DNA from: a virus
Lineage: Duplodnaviria > Heunggongvirae > Uroviricota > Caudoviricetes
Virus record (IMG/VR): IMGVR_UViG_2698536484_000028
Reading direction: 5' to 3' (one strand)
Length of the DNA stretch: 11,543 bases
Both the position numbers and the translations under genes were made by a program. The notes below the pieces were generated by a model, which did no database searches, was not told the origin of the DNA, and worked only from the letters and a program-made list of their open reading frames with translations. Each line of letters opens with the position of its first letter. Position 1 is the stretch's first letter. Positions 194 through 11,180 of the stretch are shown piece after piece.

Positions 194-955
194 TTACGAG
201 GAAGCGTTAGCTATTTGAGCTTGTGTAAATTCGAAACCAGAATTTTGTAACCGTTGCACTAGACGAGGAACTGTTTCACGTACATGGTCGTTGAAATTCA
301 GATACAAAATCCCGTTAGCATCAGAAGGCTGTTCTAGGTGCTGTTTCTGAAGGATTGCTACATTGCTGCGCCCTAAGGACGAAAGAAGCATACCCATCTC
401 GAGTACAACGTTCTGTCTTGCGCGGGGTTGGATTTCTGCTTCACCGGCGCGCTTTGAGTATCCCATATCATCAGGTGTCAAAAGAACAATCCCGAAACGG
501 GTAGCAGTTTGTCCTTGCCCAATTTCACGTTCAAGCTCTTCAATAATGGTGAGTCCAGTCCCTCCCGTATTCTGCAAAATGAAATGGTCTGGTAATCCAA
601 GTTTATGAAGGATTAGCTCAAGTTGCTCCTTTGCAGTATGGTCATGGCCGTGAACAATGAATATCTTTTTGGGGAGCTCAGATGGCTGTTCTACGGCTAG
701 TGGTGTTGCCGTGGGCGGCGTTCCTAAATGGGTCATTATTGCAGTTTCAACATTGGGACGTTCTTGAGGGTTACCTTGAAACTGAATGGTCCGGGTGGTG
801 TAAAGGTTAACAATTACGCCATTCGTTAAACGATAGCAGTCACAAGTCTCACGCTGTTCGTGGGAAAAATTGGTGAACCCACACTCCCTCAAAAAGTCAG
901 GAAAAGTTTCTCTCGAGTATGGATAGGTGATCGGCATTTCAGTTAGTTCCTGCAT
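194..955 (-). CDS. TIR-like (COG4271 / Cap12-PycTIR-effector-like) nucleotide-binding domain protein with an unrecognised ~75-aa N-terminal domain
   Basis: 253-aa ORF with AAGGA about 9 nt upstream of the ATG. Residues ~97-230 carry KIFIVHGHD..AKEQLELILHKLGL..GLTIIEELERE..FGIVLLTPDDMGY..NVVLEMGMLL, which I recognise as the hallmark pattern of the predicted nucleotide-binding TIR-like family. A Pro/Thr-rich linker (GTPPTATPLAVEQPSELP) joins it to the N-terminal domain. Family assignment is from memory, not a search. Confidence 0.75.
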   Translation of the reverse strand: MQELTEMPITYPYSRETFPDFLRECGFTNFSHEQRETCDCYRLTNGVIVNLYTTRTIQFQGNPQERPNVETAIMTHLGTPPTATPLAVEQPSELPKKIFIVHGHDHTAKEQLELILHKLGLPDHFILQNTGGTGLTIIEELEREIGQGQTATRFGIVLLTPDDMGYSKRAGEAEIQPRARQNVVLEMGMLLSSLGRSNVAILQKQHLEQPSDANGILYLNFNDHVRETVPRLVQRLQNSGFEFTQAQIANASS

Positions 956-6728: not shown

Positions 6729-6785
6729 CGGTTGTATTCCTTTTTTCATATCGGGGAGCACGCTGTTGCGAGTGCGCTTTCAGAC

Positions 6786-6813
6786 ATAAAAAAGCCCGTC
6801 ACTTGCGGCGGGC
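6786..6813 (-). terminator. Intrinsic terminator-like hairpin on the minus strand, upstream of the replication operon
   Basis: Minus-strand RNA reads GCCCGCCGCAAGUGACGGGC (5-bp GC stem with additional inner pairs) followed by UUUUUUAU. It lies about 58 nt upstream of the 6728 start codon, on the same strand. Confidence 0.45.
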
Positions 6814-6891
6814 AAAGACTACACACAGCAATTACATGGATATCATCGAGTGCCTGCTTTTAACCACATCAGGCGAGGTGGTTCTCCTTGT

Positions 6892-6936
6892 ACCCCTACA
6901 GTGAGAAATCGTCTAATATCTCTTCACCCCTACAGT
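6892..6936 (+). repeat. Two direct copies of ACCCCTACAGT upstream of the 6953 gene
   Basis: The core CCCCTACAGT occurs at 6893-6902 and 6927-6936, 34 bp apart. The second copy sits inside an imperfect inverted repeat (TCTAATATCTCT .. GAGAGATTAGA). A TAATAT hexamer lies between them at 6914-6919. Confidence 0.35.
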
Positions 6937-6952
6937 TTGAGAGAGATTAGAT

Positions 6953-7471
6953 ATGTCTGAAGAAAAAGGAATTCTTTCCCGGATAACTGAATCGTTATCC
7001 GGTGTGGGAGGAGCAATTAAAAGCGCGGTTGGAGCAGCAAGAGAGATTCAGAATCTGACTGTCGACTATGCAGTTAAAGAGAAGACGCACATCTTACTCG
7101 ATAAGCTAATGGATGTTCAGATGCAGCAAATGTCGCTTCAGGAGCTGCTGATTGCGGCTAAGGAGAAAATTGTTGAACTGGAAAATGAGAAAGTAAAGCA
7201 AGAGAACTGGGCCGCTGAAGCGGCGAGCTATGAACTTTACCAGCCTATGCGGGGTACTCTGGTCTATCGCAGCAAGCTTTCTGCAGATGCTGACCAATCT
7301 CCGGTTTATATTTGTCCCAATTGCTACGAGCAAAAGAGAAAATCTATATTGCAAGCGGAAGGTCTGGTTACTAAGCTAGGCCTTGGGCGAGTCGTTAATA
7401 TGGTTTGTTCGTACTGTAGGGCTTCCTATCTGTTCAACCCGAAATGCTTTAGAGGCCCGACTGCCTTCTGA
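6953..7471 (+). CDS. Hypothetical coiled-coil protein with C-terminal zinc-ribbon (CPNC..CSYC)
   Basis: 172-aa ORF with GAGAGA SD-like sequence upstream. Gly-rich N-terminal segment (SGVGGAIKSAVGAA), predicted coiled coil (LQELLIAAKEKIVELENEKVKQENW), then CxxC-25 residues-CxxC. Convergent with the cI-like gene. Confidence 0.7.
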   Translation: MSEEKGILSRITESLSGVGGAIKSAVGAAREIQNLTVDYAVKEKTHILLDKLMDVQMQQMSLQELLIAAKEKIVELENEKVKQENWAAEAASYELYQPMRGTLVYRSKLSADADQSPVYICPNCYEQKRKSILQAEGLVTKLGLGRVVNMVCSYCRASYLFNPKCFRGPTAF

Positions 7472-7574
7472 AGATGAAAATCCGGGGAAGGCAATCACGG
7501 ATTACGATCCTTACAACCAGTAATTTCTTTAAGCATGGGTACCCTTCCGGTCACCCAGAGTTAAAGGAACTAAG

Positions 7575-7601
7575 CGCCCCATCATCGGGGCGTTTCAACT
7601 T
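7575..7601 (+). terminator. Possible plus-strand terminator after the 6953..7471 gene
   Basis: CGCCCC-ATCATC-GGGGCG hairpin (7575-7592) followed by TTTCAACTT. The U-tract is weak. Confidence 0.3.
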
Positions 7602-7737
7602 GCGTGACTTATCAGTTCGTCGCGGTGTTGTCCTCTACGCTTACCGTACGCATACGGACTCGGCGCTTACCTCGATCCCATCGGGTGCTATTTCGTTTTG
7701 CCAGGAGCACTGCGGCTTACCTGTCACGCGGTTCTGT

Positions 7738-7749
7738 TTGTTAAAGAGC
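7738..7749 (-). promoter_or_regulatory. boxA element (exact GCUCUUUAACAA) in the leftward transcript
   Basis: The minus strand reads GCTCTTTAACAA, identical to the rrn boxA core 12-mer as I remember it (NusB/NusE binding site). It lies about 30 nt downstream of the predicted start of the leftward promoter. Confidence 0.45.
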
Positions 7750-7773
7750 TGGTATTAGAAAATGCATTAATTA

Positions 7774-7814
7774 TGCGGTATCGTATTTATATGCGTTATG
7801 GGATTTTGTGTCAA
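7774..7814 (-). promoter_or_regulatory. PL-like leftward sigma70 promoter overlapped by two operator-like repeats
   Basis: On the minus strand: -35 TTGACA (rc of 7809-7814), 17-bp spacer, -10 TATAAA (rc of 7786-7791). Operator-like motifs TGCGGTATCG (7774-7783) and TGCGTTATGG (7792-7801) flank the -10 hexamer. Confidence 0.55.
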
Positions 7815-7830
7815 TACGAAAATGAATTAT

Positions 7831-7868
7831 TTTGCAAATAAGAAAACCGCCCTTGTGGAGAGCGGTTT
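7831..7868 (-). terminator. Intrinsic terminator downstream of the cI-like gene
   Basis: Hairpin AAACCGC..GCGGTTT (7844-7868) with extra inner pairs; on the minus strand it is followed by UCUUAUUUGCAAAAU. Sits between the cI stop (7899) and the PL-like promoter. Confidence 0.5.
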
Positions 7869-7898
7869 GATCAGAGGTAAGTTATCAGACTGTAAAGG

Positions 7899-8573
7899 TT
7901 AGTACATGCGTAGCGCGGATTTGGCGATCCCCGCCACGTAATGGATTTTTTCAATGTTTTCGCGTGGTACTCTGACTGGTGGATGATCTTCATTTACAGA
8001 CATTAGATGGAACAGGCCATCGCGTTCGAACAAGAAGGTTTTAACCATGACCTCACCGTCCCGGGTAACCACAAGTACTTCATCACCAGGAGTGTAGTCG
8101 TGGTTGGGTTCGACGATTACGAACTCACCCTCTTTGATTCTAGGCATCATTGAATCACCAACACATTTCAGGGCGTATGCATCTTCATCCTTTGTCGGCC
8201 AGTATATGAAACCATCACTGCTACCTACTGAATATTGGGTGTCGCTCCAAAGTCCTCCAACGCCTAGCTGAGTGTTTCCCAAAACAGGTACTTTATTAAA
8301 CCTAAGAGAAATATACGTTTTTATACCTGTCGCGTCCTCTTTCTCCATTTCTTGAAGGCTCCTTTCTGCCAGGTCTATTGGTGACACGTGGAAGTAGTCG
8401 GCGATCTGCTTTAACGTTGCGTATTTCGGATCTTTCACCTCTCCTGATACCAGCCTGTGTAGCGTTGGTTGGTTCAGCTGTAACCGACGTGCCAGCTCAG
8501 TTATCGAGCTTATCTTGGTTTTGTCCATCAGGTACTTGATGTTTTGAGAAAGGATATCGGTAGTATCAATCAT
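7899..8573 (-). CDS. cI/LexA-like phage repressor (N-terminal HTH, C-terminal S24 peptidase domain)
   Basis: 224-aa ORF. N-terminal HTH region (ITELARRLQLNQPTLHRLVSG); C-terminal S24 signature with Ser in CVGDSMMP and Lys in EVMVKTF. No canonical Ala-Gly cleavage site in the linker; candidates are L-G or V-G-G in VPVLGNTQLGVGG. Confidence 0.85.
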   Translation of the reverse strand: MIDTTDILSQNIKYLMDKTKISSITELARRLQLNQPTLHRLVSGEVKDPKYATLKQIADYFHVSPIDLAERSLQEMEKEDATGIKTYISLRFNKVPVLGNTQLGVGGLWSDTQYSVGSSDGFIYWPTKDEDAYALKCVGDSMMPRIKEGEFVIVEPNHDYTPGDEVLVVTRDGEVMVKTFLFERDGLFHLMSVNEDHPPVRVPRENIEKIHYVAGIAKSALRMY

Positions 8574-8714
8574 TTGGATTCATCCATGTTGTATACAGGG
8601 ACGGTGATTATGCGTTATCGGATATTTTAATACAGGATGATATAGAATTGCCGTATTGCTGAATAATCCGTTTTCGTATAAATTTGCGCTATAGACGAAA
8701 GTGGAGACTTAAAT
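8574..8714. promoter_or_regulatory. Divergent cI/cro-type immunity control region
   Basis: Operator-like motifs TGCGTTATCG (8611-8620) and TGCGCTATAG (8685-8694). Candidate rightward promoter -35 TTGCTG (8656-8661) / -10 TAAATT (8679-8684), with cro SD GGAG at 8703-8706. Candidate leftward -10 CATAAT (rc of 8607-8612). Palindrome TGTATACA at 8590-8597. Confidence 0.5.
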
Positions 8715-8915
8715 ATGTCCGGACTAACACCACAAGAGATGGTCAAAAGCTTGATTGATTCAGGGTATACCCAAAACCAAATTGCCGAAATTGCAGGCGT
8801 GAAGCAGTCTTCTATTAGTCGGCTTCTCACCGGGGTTCATTCTGACCCTCGCTTTTCTACAGTACGTGCGATAGAAAAGCTTTTTCAGGAAGTGACAGCT
8901 AGACAAAAGGCGTAA
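8715..8915 (+). CDS. Cro-like small HTH (XRE-type) regulator
   Basis: 66-aa ORF divergent from the repressor, with GGAG SD 8 nt upstream. HTH region QNQIAEIAGVKQSSISRLLTG. Stop is 3 nt before the primase start. Confidence 0.8.
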   Translation: MSGLTPQEMVKSLIDSGYTQNQIAEIAGVKQSSISRLLTGVHSDPRFSTVRAIEKLFQEVTARQKA

Positions 8916-8918
8916 CCC

Positions 8919-11180
8919 ATGTCTGATAACAAACCATGGGGAGCTACGCCCGATGAGTGGTTCCACTTCGATCTGGTGTTGGGGATGACAGACAGGCTTT
9001 TACCTGTGGTGTCCAATCCCTGTGCAGAACTGTCGCCTAATAGCAAGCTGTCTCATAATTTCGGCAAAACCCCCAGTCGCTACAATGGCCAACGTAAGGT
9101 TGTTGGTATCCCCGACTGGGCTAACTATGTTGTTACGGAAAACGATTTTGCCCGGTGGTCGAACGAACCCGATTACGGTATTTGCGTTCGTACTGGCGAC
9201 GGGGTGGTGGCTCTGGACTGCGATATCAATGACGCCGGGATGCAGGAGATCGTACGCAATATTATCCTATCATGCCTGGGGGAACTTCCGCCACGTCGCT
9301 GGCGGGCTGACAGTCATAAATGCCTGTACCTGATTGCTGTTGATGGCGACTACCGTAAACGTGGTCACCGCCTGGAAGGCGAAAACAAACAAATAGAGCT
9401 GCTCGCTAAGGGCCAGCAGTTTGTGGCTTGTGGTACCCATCCGGCAGGCGAACGTATTCAGTGGGACAGCGGTTTGCCCGGCGAACCTCTGAAAATTACA
9501 TCTGAACAGCTCGAAAGCCTGTGGCAGCGTCTGGCGGATAACTTACCCGTGAAAGACAGCTATACCGCAGGTGCAGGACGTCAGCGTGACCTTTCCTGTG
9601 TTGATCCTTCCGCGACAGATGATGTCGCCGACTGGCTTGACGCGAACGGGTGGACTCTGTCAGTCAGCTCTGATGGTTCCCGCAATCTGAAACCGTTTCG
9701 GGATGAGTCAGAATACAGCAACGGTTGCAGCGAAACATCCATTAAGTATTTTCCAAAAGGGACGGGGGGATTTGAACAGGGACATTTTAAAAGCATGCAC
9801 AACACCGATGCGGGGCTTACTGATGCCGACTGGCTGGAAGGCTACGGCTATACGCAATCCCTGTTCGAAGATCTCACGGTGGCTGAAGATGGCGATAAGC
9901 CTGAATTTACCGATATTAATACAGATATGACAGCTCATTTTCTGGAACGCTTTATCTACGTCATCGAGGGTGACCAGGTATGTGATCTTAGCCGACCGCC
10001 ATATCAGTGCATGATGGATATGAAGTCGTTCAAAAACCTGATGGCGCCTTACCAGTTCCCGCCAGAAGGGAAAGGACAACCAACTCCCGCAACCAAACGG
10101 TGGATAGAGCATCGGCATAAGAAGATTGCTGAGACGACAGGCTATAAGCCCGGTGCGGGACGTATTATCGAGCGTTTCGACGGGCGGTTTGAGATAAACG
10201 AATTTTATATGCCTGAGCATCCACGTACAGCGGATACAAGTAAGGTGTCCACGTTCCTTAATCATATGGCGTATCTGGTACCTGATGCCTGGCAGCGCGA
10301 GTTTTTCATCGCCCGTCTGGGGTGGATGGTTCAGCGTCCGGAGCGTCGATGCCCGATTTCTATTCTGCATGTGGCTACCGCACATGGTACGGGCAGAGGA
10401 TGGGTCAGTCAGTTAATGGAGCGCGTGCTTGGCCCGTGGAACTGTGCTCGTACTCGCATGAAGATCCTGTGCGATAACCAGTTCCATGACTATCTGTACA
10501 ATACACTTCTATGCACCATTGACGAGGTGCGCGAAAACGATAAGCGGTATGAGGTGAACGATAAGATCCGTGACGTGCTGACAGAACCACGGTTTGAAGT
10601 GAACCGCAAATATGGCAGCAAAAAAACGATGGATATATACACCGGCTTTCTGTTCTACACCAACCACTTTGATGCGCTGGCGCTGCCAGAGGAAGACCGA
10701 CGTATAGCTGTGCTGGGGGGCCCTGACTTCGCCGCAACTGAAGAGCATTACGCCAGCCTGTACGGTGCGCTAAGCGACAGCGACTTTATCGCCCAGGTGT
10801 ACTGGTATCTAATGGGCGTTGACCTGTCTCGCTTTAACTGGCAGCGCGCCCCCGAGACGAAAGAACGCCTTCTGATGATTGAAAGCAATAAGAGCGATGT
10901 GGAGGCTGCTCTTATTGAAATCCTGGATAATCCGCCTGTGCCAGCAATGACTTATCAACAAATTGTTAACGCAATACTGGCAGAAGCAGGAATGGATGTA
11001 GAAATTAACCAGAAGCATATTACTCGCATTTTGAAAGAAAGAACAAAGCGGGAACCCGTACGCGTAAAAATTGACGGGTTTGTATATAGGATTTGGATTC
11101 TTGTAAAAAATAACGATTTCAGCAACGAAGAATTGCGCGAAATATATAAATCTTGCGAAATTTTGCAATCTGGATTGTAA
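8919..11180 (+). CDS. Replication initiator: AEP-type primase-polymerase N-terminal domain fused to an SF3-helicase-like NTPase domain
   Basis: 753-aa ORF. N-terminal GICVRTGDGVVALDCD (hhhDhD-type AEP motif). C-terminal region has P-loop-like ILHVATAHGTGRGW, Walker B-like LLCTIDEV and motif C-like FYTNHF. An iteron origin lies immediately downstream. Confidence 0.8.
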   Translation: MSDNKPWGATPDEWFHFDLVLGMTDRLLPVVSNPCAELSPNSKLSHNFGKTPSRYNGQRKVVGIPDWANYVVTENDFARWSNEPDYGICVRTGDGVVALDCDINDAGMQEIVRNIILSCLGELPPRRWRADSHKCLYLIAVDGDYRKRGHRLEGENKQIELLAKGQQFVACGTHPAGERIQWDSGLPGEPLKITSEQLESLWQRLADNLPVKDSYTAGAGRQRDLSCVDPSATDDVADWLDANGWTLSVSSDGSRNLKPFRDESEYSNGCSETSIKYFPKGTGGFEQGHFKSMHNTDAGLTDADWLEGYGYTQSLFEDLTVAEDGDKPEFTDINTDMTAHFLERFIYVIEGDQVCDLSRPPYQCMMDMKSFKNLMAPYQFPPEGKGQPTPATKRWIEHRHKKIAETTGYKPGAGRIIERFDGRFEINEFYMPEHPRTADTSKVSTFLNHMAYLVPDAWQREFFIARLGWMVQRPERRCPISILHVATAHGTGRGWVSQLMERVLGPWNCARTRMKILCDNQFHDYLYNTLLCTIDEVRENDKRYEVNDKIRDVLTEPRFEVNRKYGSKKTMDIYTGFLFYTNHFDALALPEEDRRIAVLGGPDFAATEEHYASLYGALSDSDFIAQVYWYLMGVDLSRFNWQRAPETKERLLMIESNKSDVEAALIEILDNPPVPAMTYQQIVNAILAEAGMDVEINQKHITRILKERTKREPVRVKIDGFVYRIWILVKNNDFSNEELREIYKSCEILQSGL

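Follow-up and report, generated by a model that had tools for sequence, protein, structure and literature searches.

The immunity region of an uncharacterised Escherichia coli prophage raises the question of what its cI-type repressor recognises. A repeated 10-mer, TGCG-N-TAT-N-G, lies on both sides of the repressor gene, and the first-pass annotation read four same-orientation copies as an OL/OR-like operator built from direct rather than palindromic repeats, which would be unusual for a cI-type repressor. In the present study, we examined the window, namely the whole stretch of 11,543 nucleotides containing this region, together with related prophages. Five 14-bp two-fold-symmetric sites were found, and they are very probably the OL and OR operators of a cI/Cro switch. 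On this reading, the locus is an ordinary lambda/434-style immunity region and not an unusual direct-repeat operator.

The regulators and the repeated 10-mer

The prophage is integrated next to yfhL in E. coli, and an integrase, replication genes, a Q antiterminator, and lysis and structural genes were found around cI and cro. This prophage type was present in 96 of 5,426 complete E. coli genomes. The two regulatory genes are divergently transcribed:

7899..8573, minus strand: cI-type repressor, 224 aa (Pfam Peptidase_S24, 2.6e-18; HTH_26, 8e-12)
8715..8915, plus strand: Cro-like HTH protein, 66 aa (Pfam HTH_3, 1.2e-09)

The repressor combines an N-terminal HTH domain with a C-terminal S24 self-cleaving peptidase, in which S141 (GDSM) and K178 (VKTF) correspond to the LexA motifs and are retained by 38 homologues. 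The 10-mer occurs in the window as follows:

7774-7783, plus strand: motif copy 1, TGCGGTATCG
7792-7801, plus strand: motif copy 2, TGCGTTATGG
8611-8620, plus strand: motif copy 3, TGCGTTATCG
8685-8694, plus strand: motif copy 4, TGCGCTATAG
9560-9569, minus strand: motif copy 5, inside the primase gene, at chance level

The four plus-strand copies are present where they had been reported, and the five matches compare with 0.40 expected in the window, at least five being reached in 0 of 200 shuffles. Outside the immunity region, a scan for further copies in 41.5 kb of prophage and flank (L001) found the motif only at background frequency. Three copies have the extended context TTATGCGkTATsG in common, as had been claimed. 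The promoter positions also broadly agreed: copies 1 and 2 flank the PL -10 hexamer (TATAAA, 7791-7786, minus strand), copy 3 abuts the candidate -10 of the cI promoter, and copy 4, said to overlap the start of the cro promoter, lies just downstream of the PR -10.

An operator of four direct repeats recognised head-to-tail is consistent with the excess of plus-strand copies, with the 13-16 nt of context that three of them have in common in one orientation, and with the 18-bp spacing from copy 4 to the site termed OR-B below, equal to that between OL1 and OL2. However, each of the three strong copies (7774, 7792 and 8611) lies within a 14-bp dyad, ATnCG-N4-CGnAT, and forms the left two-thirds of this pseudo-palindrome (AT-n-CG-N4-CG-n-AT); the impression of direct repeats arose because only 10 of the 14 bp were read. 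The agreement in orientation of three of three strong copies has a one-in-four probability by chance, and neither the other two sites nor the relatives keep this orientation. The set of four was also incomplete, because it missed the dyads at 7814-7827 (PL -35) and 8666-8679 (PR spacer), termed OL3 and OR-B, which fit the dyad and not the 10-mer. In addition, near-perfect palindromes occupy the same positions in relatives, and copy 4 has a polymorphic core base and is lost in L020 and L022, which have the same recognition helix. We consider the head-to-tail reading very unlikely.

Putative operators in the two control regions

The candidate operator consists of two 5-bp half-sites, ATnCG, around an A/T-rich 4-bp centre (5+4+5). 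The five sites conform to ATnCG-N4-CGnAT and cover parts of PL or PR (-35, spacer, -10 or +1), at positions kept in relatives. The features of the left control region are as follows (a dot marks features without strand):

7738..7749, minus strand: boxA of the rrn type, GCTCTTTAACAA (exact match), some 30 nt past the predicted PL start
7754..7767, dot: OL0, candidate weak fourth left operator, ATTAGAAAATGCAT, one mismatch to ATNCRNNNNYGNAT
7773..7786, dot: OL1, ATGCGGTATCGTAT, exact match to both dyad patterns, containing copy 1
7786..7791, minus strand: PL -10 hexamer TATAAA, read from the sequence, with TTTATA conserved here across the family
7791..7804, dot: OL2, ATGCGTTATGGGAT, in the PL spacer, containing copy 2, one mismatch to the dyad pattern
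7809..7814, minus strand: PL -35 hexamer TTGACA, read from the sequence, 17 nt from the -10, GTCAA being conserved in 34 non-redundant loci
7814..7827, dot: OL3, ATACGAAAATGAAT, exact ATNCRNNNNYGNAT match, abutting the PL -35 with 1-nt overlap
7844..7868, minus strand: intrinsic terminator of the cI transcript, a 10-pair stem followed by TCTTATTT (terminator scan)

The right control region contains the following features:

8610..8623, dot: OR-A, ATGCGTTATCGGAT, exact match to the dyad patterns, containing copy 3
8624..8629, minus strand: candidate -10 of the cI maintenance promoter (PRM), TAAAAT; TAnnnT stands next to OR-A in most relatives (TACAAT, TAGAGT, TAATAT)
8643..8656, dot: OR-M, degenerate site, TAGAATTGCCGTAT, intact only in its PR-proximal half, CGTAT
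8656..8661, plus strand: PR -35 hexamer TTGCTG, TTGnnn being conserved in relatives (TTGATA, TTGATT, TTGCTT)
8666..8679, dot: OR-B, ATCCGTTTTCGTAT, exact ATNCRNNNNYGNAT match with one mismatch to ATNCGNTANCGNAT, filling the PR spacer
8679..8684, plus strand: predicted PR -10 hexamer TAAATT, 17 nt from the -35, with TAnnnT at this column in 17 relatives
8684..8697, dot: copy 4 slot, TTGCGCTATAGACG, at the predicted PR start, half-site-like only in its proximal TTGCG

A promoter scan of the window, with T demanded at -10 position 6 and a minimum of 9 of 12 matches, missed both PL and PR and gave no hit for the cI promoter; the PL -10 TATAAA was skipped because of the required T. Promoters were therefore assigned from hexamers conserved across relatives. 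The cI promoter at 8624..8629 is a candidate suggested by the conserved TAnnnT, its -35 being poor or unrecognisable.

Several lines of evidence distinguish these sites from a chance resemblance among A/T-rich promoter sequences. First, the pattern derived from relatives, ATNCRNNNNYGNAT, has four exact matches in the 11.5 kb against 0.87 expected, and all four fall within the two control regions, together about 280 bp, with OL2 at one mismatch. Second, the skeleton AT-N-C-N6-G-N-AT has a density of 17.0 per kb in the two control regions of 50 related loci versus 0.22 per kb outside them, an enrichment of about 77-fold, and its distances from the cI start and stop are constant. Third, a sequence-agnostic profile of dyad symmetry in 34 non-redundant loci peaks exactly at the offsets of OL1 (2.97 of 5, against a background of about 1.5) and OL3 (3.53 of 5, the highest peak of the family), while the symmetry at OL2, whose right half is imperfect, is weak family-wide (1.53 of 5). 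Fourth, nearly all substitutions within the five sites in same-immunity phages fall at positions 3, 6-9 and 12, leaving positions 1, 2, 4, 5, 10, 11, 13 and 14 constrained. In OL1, only positions 3, 6, 7 and 9 vary, and in OL2 only positions 7 and 12.

A simpler statistic behaved differently. A per-locus search for the best 5-mer dyad with gaps of 1-9 gave counts not above shuffles in these A/T-rich regions, although with gap 4 it returned ATACG, ATGCG or ATTCA in most loci. This statistic was therefore dropped and replaced by position-anchored symmetry, family-wide enrichment and substitution footprints. The A/T-rich composition and the failure of per-locus counts to exceed shuffles speak for a chance origin, with no dedicated binding site; however, such an origin accounts for neither the enrichment at fixed positions, nor the position-specific substitutions, nor the joint change of both arms between immunity types, and it is scarcely credible. 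Promoter elements overlapped by OL1, OL2 and OR-B could explain some of the conservation of these three sites. The sequence data show directly that the sites exist, are symmetric, are conserved and stand where they do among the promoter hexamers, and that they co-vary with both regulators as described below.

PL and PR have one common layout, site - 9 nt - site - 4 nt - site. On the left, OL1 has the predicted PL start (about 7779) at its centre, and OL0 has a good right half and a left half without C4; at the place of OL0, YeP4-type phages have a full dyad, e.g. ATGCATTATTGCAT and ATGCAATACAGCAT. On the right, OR-A stands 36 nt before the cI start codon, does not vary among any of the relatives with the same helix, L022 among them, and corresponds to a dyad in 17 of 17 aligned relatives. 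The predicted PR operator proper is 8666-8679 (OR-B), whose position holds a dyad in all aligned relatives and whose sequence is invariant in same-immunity phages. L022 has an identical recognition helix and differs at about 40% of intergenic bases, yet its OR-A is the same at 14 of 14 positions and its OR-B is changed only at position 3, a change that creates a perfect palindrome (ATACG..CGTAT).

A third full OR site was not found in the window; half-sites only were observed, at 8643-8656 and 8684-8697. OR comprises two full sites with 56 bp between their centres, versus three, possibly four, sites in OL. The OR-M slot has the geometry that OL3 has relative to PL and holds a full dyad in L042, L045 and the ATTCA group, and ATTCA-type relatives have three full OR sites. 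The copy 4 slot stands 18 bp centre to centre from OR-B, the distance from OL1 to OL2. Nevertheless, copy 4 was not an equal member of the original set: its distal half is no half-site, its core G8688 is G, A or T among same-repressor phages, and it differs at 6 of 10 bases in L022. TTGCTCTATA is common to L020 and to L062, whose operator half-sites differ from those of the window. The single half-site, the polymorphic core G and the OL1-equivalent slot suggest that this is at best a relic or weak site. The proposed OL/OR-like layout, with sites on both sides of the cI-type gene that overlap the leftward and rightward promoters, is supported, and copy 4 as a full operator is not.

The same arms can be combined in another register, in which neighbouring arms make up tail-to-tail palindromes; one example, CGTAT-TTAT-ATGCG, has the PL -10 at its centre. 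Consistent with this register, PL of Yersinia phage YeP4 carries AACGCAT-TTAT-ATGCGAT, a perfect AACGCAT-CTTATA-ATGCGTT separates the OR sites of this phage (AACGCAT-N6-ATGCGTT in the cI-cro spacer), and APSE has ACGCATAA-N6-TTATGCG. However, OR-A and OR-B stand alone without a neighbouring arm, and the spacing is inconsistent (4, 6 or 10 nt). In the ATTCA group, the tail-to-tail reading yields direct and not inverted repeats (AATGAAT-TTAT-AATGAA), whereas 5+4+5 gives perfect dyads, e.g. ATTCAATAATGAAT. This register was rejected because it fails in the ATTCA group, and we regard it as highly improbable.

The repeats might also be iterons or origin elements for the adjacent PrimPol/DUF5906 replication protein, whose gene begins 4 nt after cro. 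The single orientation of the copies would be compatible with this role, and the APSE-7 record labels the cI-cro spacer "putative origin of replication region". However, the sites are dyads that fall into two groups flanking cI, about 830 bp from each other, and they overlap promoter hexamers, have no regular tandem spacing and co-vary with the cI and Cro helices, while the lone copy in the primase gene (9560) is at chance level. A role as iterons is thus extremely improbable, and the 14-bp operators are retained as the preferred reading.

Half-site sequence and regulator type among relatives

An alignment-based scan of viral contigs provided the usable set of related loci, while a single-protein scan of genome contigs gave only 4. 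Relatives were found in further genera such as Yersinia, Salmonella and Xenorhabdus, and the APSE phages, from symbionts of aphids, are among them. About 50 related prophages have 14-bp dyads at the same positions, and the half-site varies with the type of repressor and Cro. Helix 3 of both proteins has a Q-x4-R pattern, and that of Cro (KQSSISR in the window) varies with operator type across relatives:

Half-site ATnCG: cI helix NQPTLHR; Cro helix KQSSISR
Half-site ATGCR: cI helix QQST(L/M)(H/Q)R; Cro helix (N/A)QSSI(S/C)R
Half-site ATTCA: cI helix PQPT(M/F)HR; Cro helix SQASISR

Thus, the half-site sequence tracks the regulators while the site positions stay fixed, and both arms change together between immunity types. 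YeP4, APSE and Escherichia phage vB_EcoM-683R1 have homologous cI (61%, 50% and 99.6% identity, respectively), Cro and primase in the same order. YeP4 has near-perfect palindromes at the same positions, e.g. ATGCGATATTGCAT and ATCCGTTAACGCAT, with the half-site ATGCR and not the ATnCG of the window, and the sites of APSE are more diverged and partly in another arrangement. In the literature and records on these three phages, we found no operator annotation and no binding or transcript experiment.

The boxA downstream of PL is the sole exact match to GCTCTTTAACAA in the window and in the 41.5 kb of L001. Among related sequences, 34 non-identical ones, including YeP4 and APSE, retain it downstream of cI. 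Its sequence equals the rrn boxA-spacer "ugcucuuuaacaa" given in PMC2724277, and its presence probably identifies the leftward transcript as early and subject to antitermination. Downstream of boxA, the fold of the leader was not better than shuffles (single sequence, z 0.27), the two leader types had no consensus structure in common, and a structured RNA was found there neither as an Rfam hit nor as an annotation in phage records; an RprA-like RNA lies apart from this leader, at 6784-6897.

The proposed switch and its comparison with 434 and lambda

The identity of the bound protein, the sequence of site occupancy, the starts of transcription (predicted near 7779 leftward, 8691 rightward and 8617 for cI) and the SOS inducibility of the switch are inferences from these data. 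A dimer of the cI-type repressor presumably binds each 14-bp pseudo-palindrome, as would the small Cro protein with other preferences. OL1, OL2 and OL3 would cover the PL start site, spacer and -35 edge, so that bound repressor would shut off the leftward early operon, whose transcript would carry the rrn-type boxA for antitermination. OR-B, in the PR spacer, would block transcription of cro and the replication genes. OR-A abuts the candidate -10 of the cI promoter, suggesting negative autoregulation of cI or, as at lambda OR3, shut-off of cI by Cro. Upon DNA damage, S24 self-cleavage would release both promoters.

The asymmetry of the three strongest sites (TATGCG-kTAT-sGgAT, same-facing), together with the inward-facing, half-degenerate slots around OR-B, could be functional, although we consider this unlikely. 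If so, directional and graded occupancy might replace the three-adjacent-site cooperativity of lambda and 434, for example through a dimer on OR-B extended by half-site contacts, or through discrimination between cI and Cro by the non-symmetric arm, and the switch would consist of two distant full OR sites plus hemi-sites. The present results reveal no new regulatory principle, and the direct-repeat oddity is gone once the full 14-bp sites are read. The value of the present results lies in an operator map and a testable half-site code (ATnCG, ATGCR and ATTCA versus recognition-helix variants) for a widespread, uncharacterised prophage family. Immunity groups can be predicted from sequence through this map, and the family offers a natural series for the co-evolution of repressor and operator specificity on a 434-like scaffold.

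The arrangement resembles lambda in its divergent cI and cro genes, S24 self-cleavage domain, three operators overlapping PL followed by boxA, and single operators in PR and at the cI promoter. In the lambda record, the annotated OL1-3 and nutL follow each other as the operators and boxA do here. However, lambda sites are 17 bp and not 14 bp, and lambda OR2 activates PRM from about -42, whereas no full site is equivalently placed here. The boxA here is the full rrn consensus, in contrast to CGCTCTTA in lambda (PMC2724277), and no boxB was identified. The early genes are YeP4/APSE/BPP-1-like, and the backbone is not lambdoid throughout.

In 434, both OR and OL have 14-bp sites, of which the outer 5+5 bases are contacted and the four central bases are not (PMC1636474). 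The present sites are likewise 14-bp, two-fold symmetric and organised as 5+4+5, with several on each side of the repressor gene and A/T-rich centres (GTAT, TTAT, AAAA and TTTT), and their substitutions gather at positions 3, 6-9 and 12 while the outer bases are constrained. Unlike 434, the half-site is ATnCG and not ACAA(T) (outer ACAA...TTGT), and OR, instead of three adjacent sites, comprises degenerate slots and two full sites whose centres are 56 bp apart. The cooperative logic of lambda and 434 therefore cannot be assumed for two sites so distant. Against solved structures, the N-terminal domain of cI had no significant relative in the PDB, and the Cro-like protein had weak natural HTH matches, 434 Cro being the first (E 0.014), with repeat and designed proteins scoring stronger. 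The ATnCG outer bases and these structural comparisons together suggest that the prophage has a switch that works in a 434-like manner and belongs to an immunity type other than that of 434.

Probable dyad operator sites in the prophage immunity region

E. coli O55:H7 strain DEC5E carries a prophage that matches the region at 100% identity; among 5,426 complete E. coli genomes, 96 have it at 95-100% identity. The prophage, which adjoins yfhL, carries an integrase gene, a cI (repressor) and cro pair, and genes for a PrimPol/DUF5906 replication protein, a Q antiterminator, lysis and myovirus-type structural proteins, and its leftward early operon encodes an SNF2 helicase, a methyltransferase, a family A DNA polymerase, a DUF2815 single-strand-binding protein and a DUF2800 nuclease. 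A 253-aa protein (window 194-955, minus) with a CAP12/Pycsar-effector-type TIR domain (Pfam E 2.9e-31) is possibly the product of an anti-phage defence gene in the early-left region. By repressor identity, the closest deposited phages are vB_EcoM-683R1 (99.6%), Yersinia phage YeP4 (61%) and the APSE phages (~50%).

The four plus-strand copies of TGCG-N-TAT-N-G reported in the first-pass annotation (7774, 7792, 8611 and 8685) are all present, three of them with the extended context described there; the replication gene holds a fifth, minus-strand copy at 9560. These five matches compare with 0.40 expected in the window, and none of 200 shuffles gave five; the observation is real and non-random. 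Across the 41.5-kb locus (prophage and flank), the pattern was at background outside the immunity region. When the three strong copies were lengthened by 1 base leftward and 3 bases rightward, the resulting 14-mers were found to sit in two-fold symmetric AT-n-CG-N4-CG-n-AT dyads, contrary to the proposal of direct rather than palindromic repeats, and a scan with this dyad yielded two further sites.

Regulator genes and dyad sites of the immunity region
7773-7786: OL1, ATGCGGTATCGTAT, fits the dyad
7791-7804: OL2, ATGCGTTATGGGAT, fits the dyad
7814-7827: OL3, ATACGAAAATGAAT, from the dyad scan
7899-8573, minus: cI-type repressor, 224 aa, HTH_26 and Peptidase_S24
8610-8623: OR-A, ATGCGTTATCGGAT, fits the dyad
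8643-8656: degenerate slot, TAGAATTGCCGTAT, intact inner arm only
8666-8679: OR-B, ATCCGTTTTCGTAT, from the dyad scan; fills the spacer of PR, the rightward cro promoter
8715-8915, plus: Cro-like protein, 66 aa, HTH_3

The OL/OR-like layout proposed earlier is supported, the sites being dyads on both sides of cI at PL (the leftward early promoter) and PR, at positions conserved in relatives. As an operator set, the copies at 7774, 7792 and 8611 stand, that at 8685 is doubtful, and 7814-7827 and 8666-8679 had been missed. Perfect matches to the pattern ATNCRNNNNYGNAT, generalised from dyads in relatives, number exactly four in the 11.5-kb window, where 0.87 are expected, and all of them lie within the two short control regions; OL2 deviates by one mismatch. 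The 41.5-kb locus holds three more perfect matches, all scattered singletons. The dyad centres are GTAT, TTAT, AAAA, TTAT and TTTT. PL and PR have a like geometry (site, 9 nt, site, 4 nt, site), the slots being OL3, OL2 and OL1 at PL and 8643-8656, OR-B and 8684-8697 at PR; the full OR sites are two, 56 bp apart.

Co-variation of repressors and predicted operators among relatives

The comparison set comprised 80 loci with repressor relatives (39-100% identity), plus YeP4 and APSE-7. cI is always followed downstream by a leftward promoter (TTGACA-17-TATAAA or a near variant), and 14-bp elements lie at set offsets on either side of it. A symmetry score independent of the actual sequence (complementary outer pairs out of 5, mean over 34 non-redundant loci) peaked at the OL3 (3.53/5) and OL1 (2.97/5) offsets, with ~1.2-2.0 at most others; no peak was observed at the OL2 offset (1.53/5), and therefore the spacer site is generally less symmetric. 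In the cI-cro spacers of 17 relatives, a dyad always occupies two columns, ~36 nt from the cI start and within the PR spacer. Both arms vary jointly between immunity types, and the positions are fixed.

Half-site types and recognition helices
ATnCG, window type: in relatives, e.g. ATACGATATCGTAT, ATACGTTTTCGTAT; cI NQPTLHR; Cro KQSSISR
ATGCR, YeP4-like phages: e.g. ATGCGATATTGCAT, ATCCGTTAACGCAT, ATGCGAATTTGCAT; cI QQST(L/M)(H/Q)R; Cro (N/A)QSSI(S/C)R
ATTCA, third group: e.g. ATTCAATAATGAAT, ATTCTATATTGAAT, ATTCAAAAGTGAAT; cI PQPT(M/F)HR; Cro SQASISR

In 50 loci, 200 copies of the shared skeleton AT-N-C-N6-G-N-AT fall within control regions totalling 11.75 kb (17.0 per kb), against 36 in 164 kb outside them (0.22 per kb); the hits keep stereotyped distances to the cI start (~-50, -83, -105) and to the cI stop. 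The main interest of these loci is a clean natural series of repressor/operator co-variation. Between the two OR dyads of YeP4 (2400-2470, cI-cro spacer) lies a perfect 20-bp palindrome, AACGCAT-CTTATA-ATGCGTT, which has outward-facing arms, does not fit the 5+4+5 operator model and is without counterpart in the window; it may be another regulator's site or reflect an alternative binding mode.

Within the window's immunity type, the related locus L022 has the same recognition helix in a repressor 74% identical. Although about 40% of the bases in the cI-cro spacer alignment are different, OR-A matches at 14 of 14 positions, and OR-B changes at position 3 only, giving the perfect palindrome ATACG-TTTT-CGTAT. 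In L008-L022, the five sites carry their substitutions at positions 3, 6-9 and 12, the sole exception being a G-to-A change at OL3 position 5 in L022 that retains a purine. This is the pattern expected if a protein dimer reads positions 1, 2, 4, 5, 10, 11, 13 and 14.

In the 14-mer around the copy at 8685, TTGCGCTATAGACG (8684-8697), one arm (TTGCG) is acceptable and the other is not a half-site. The copy's core G8688 is replaced by A in L010 and by T in L020, both with the same repressor helix, and 6 of the copy's 10 bases differ in L022. The string TTGCTCTATA is common to L020 and L062, whose operator half-sites are unlike the window's, which suggests that it might be kept for a non-operator reason, e.g. 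a transcription start or 5' leader. The position is not arbitrary, being the third slot of the geometry shared by PL and PR, and a full third site covers the PR start in ATTCA-type relatives; on these grounds, we call this copy a relic or weak hemi-site and do not place it on a par with the other sites.

Promoters, the PL leader and neighbouring RNA features

Predicted promoter elements and transcript features
7814-7809, minus: PL -35, TTGACA, 17-nt spacer to the -10
7791-7786, minus: PL -10, TATAAA
7749-7738, minus: boxA, GCTCTTTAACAA, ~30 nt downstream of the predicted PL start
7868-7844, minus: cI transcript terminator, from the terminator scan
8629-8624, minus: candidate cI promoter -10, TAAAAT, a conserved TAnnnT abutting OR-A
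8656-8661, plus: PR -35, TTGCTG, column conserved as TTGnnn in relatives
8679-8684, plus: PR -10, TAAATT, column conserved as TAnnnT in relatives

PL, predicted to start near 7779 at the centre of OL1, was missed by the promoter scan because the tool needs T as the last -10 base. The candidate cI promoter, for which no good -35 was found, is our weakest inference and rests on the conserved TAnnnT. The boxA has no other exact copy in 41.5 kb, equals the rrn boxA-spacer listed as 'ugcucuuuaacaa' (PMC2724277), and follows cI in 34 non-identical relatives, YeP4 and APSE included; its place after PL lends support to PL as the likely early promoter. In some relatives (L047 2938, L060 2884), a second exact boxA lies ~600 nt further down the leftward operon.

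The PL leader (7565-7749, minus) consists of boxA, then ~170 nt without an ORF and a terminator hairpin (7600-7573), and is >95% identical across different immunity types (the window, L029, L046). A second leader type (YeP4, L022) also has the motif CCTGGCAAAACGAAATAGC; a third type occurs in APSE-like phages. For the PL leader, no Rfam family match, unusually stable fold or consensus structure was found; it could act in antitermination in an N-independent or unusual way. Antisense to it, a plus-strand terminator-like hairpin, CTCGATCCCATCGGG (7671-7700), is followed by TGCTATTTCGTTTTGCC, a T-rich tail complementary to the motif shared with the YeP4-type leader, and could end a small antisense RNA.

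Further along the minus strand, an RprA-like RNA (6784-6897) scores 47.5 bits against Rfam RF00034, under the gathering score of 70 (sub-region E 1.5e-4); its 3' part, AAUUGCUGUGUGUAGUCUUUGCCCG plus terminator, agrees with the RprA consensus at every base, and its 5' part does not match. Such a 3'-end mimic on a prophage could act on host RprA targets. Fused to this 3' end is a stretch (6851-6960, minus) that matches phage lambda 34395-34499, a PL-operon segment between N and ral, at 81-83% identity and contains two direct repeats of ACTGTAGGGGT ~34 nt apart; similar matches occur in ~139 phage records, which give no function for it. A 172-aa ORF (6953-7471, plus), opposite the PL transcript strand between PL and the early-left genes, has no Pfam match, is accompanied by a bidirectional-looking hairpin at 7573-7600 and looks like an inserted 'moron'; in lambda, sieB sits at roughly this place.

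Proposed switch and comparison with known systems

Herein, we propose that each 14-bp dyad would be bound by a cI dimer, occupancy of OL1-OL3 occluding PL and that of OR-B occluding PR, and that OR-A, at the candidate cI promoter start, might serve cI autorepression or Cro-mediated cI shut-off. Which protein occupies which site, in what order the sites fill and whether OL and OR, ~830 bp apart, are joined by looping are matters of inference. Induction might proceed by RecA-stimulated self-cleavage of cI, as suggested by its conserved Ser/Lys dyad (GDSM and VKTF, aligned to LexA). Antitermination of the PL transcript would account for expression of the early operon from PL beyond the hairpin at 7600-7573 and the opposite-strand ORF.

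No operator description for YeP4, APSE or 683R1 was found in the searchable literature. Among solved structures, the cI N-domain has no significant relative, and window Cro matches natural HTH proteins weakly, 434 Cro first (E 0.014), with repeat and designed proteins ranking higher. Phage 434 is the best functional likeness for the switch: its OR and OL have 14-bp sites with contacts to the outer 5+5 bases and indirect readout of the central 4, where A/T is favoured (PMC1636474). The 434 half-site is ACAA and that of the window ATnCG, and the window OR has two full sites 56 bp apart instead of three adjacent ones. Therefore, the system is of neither the 434 nor the lambda immunity type and is a new specificity built on a known plan.
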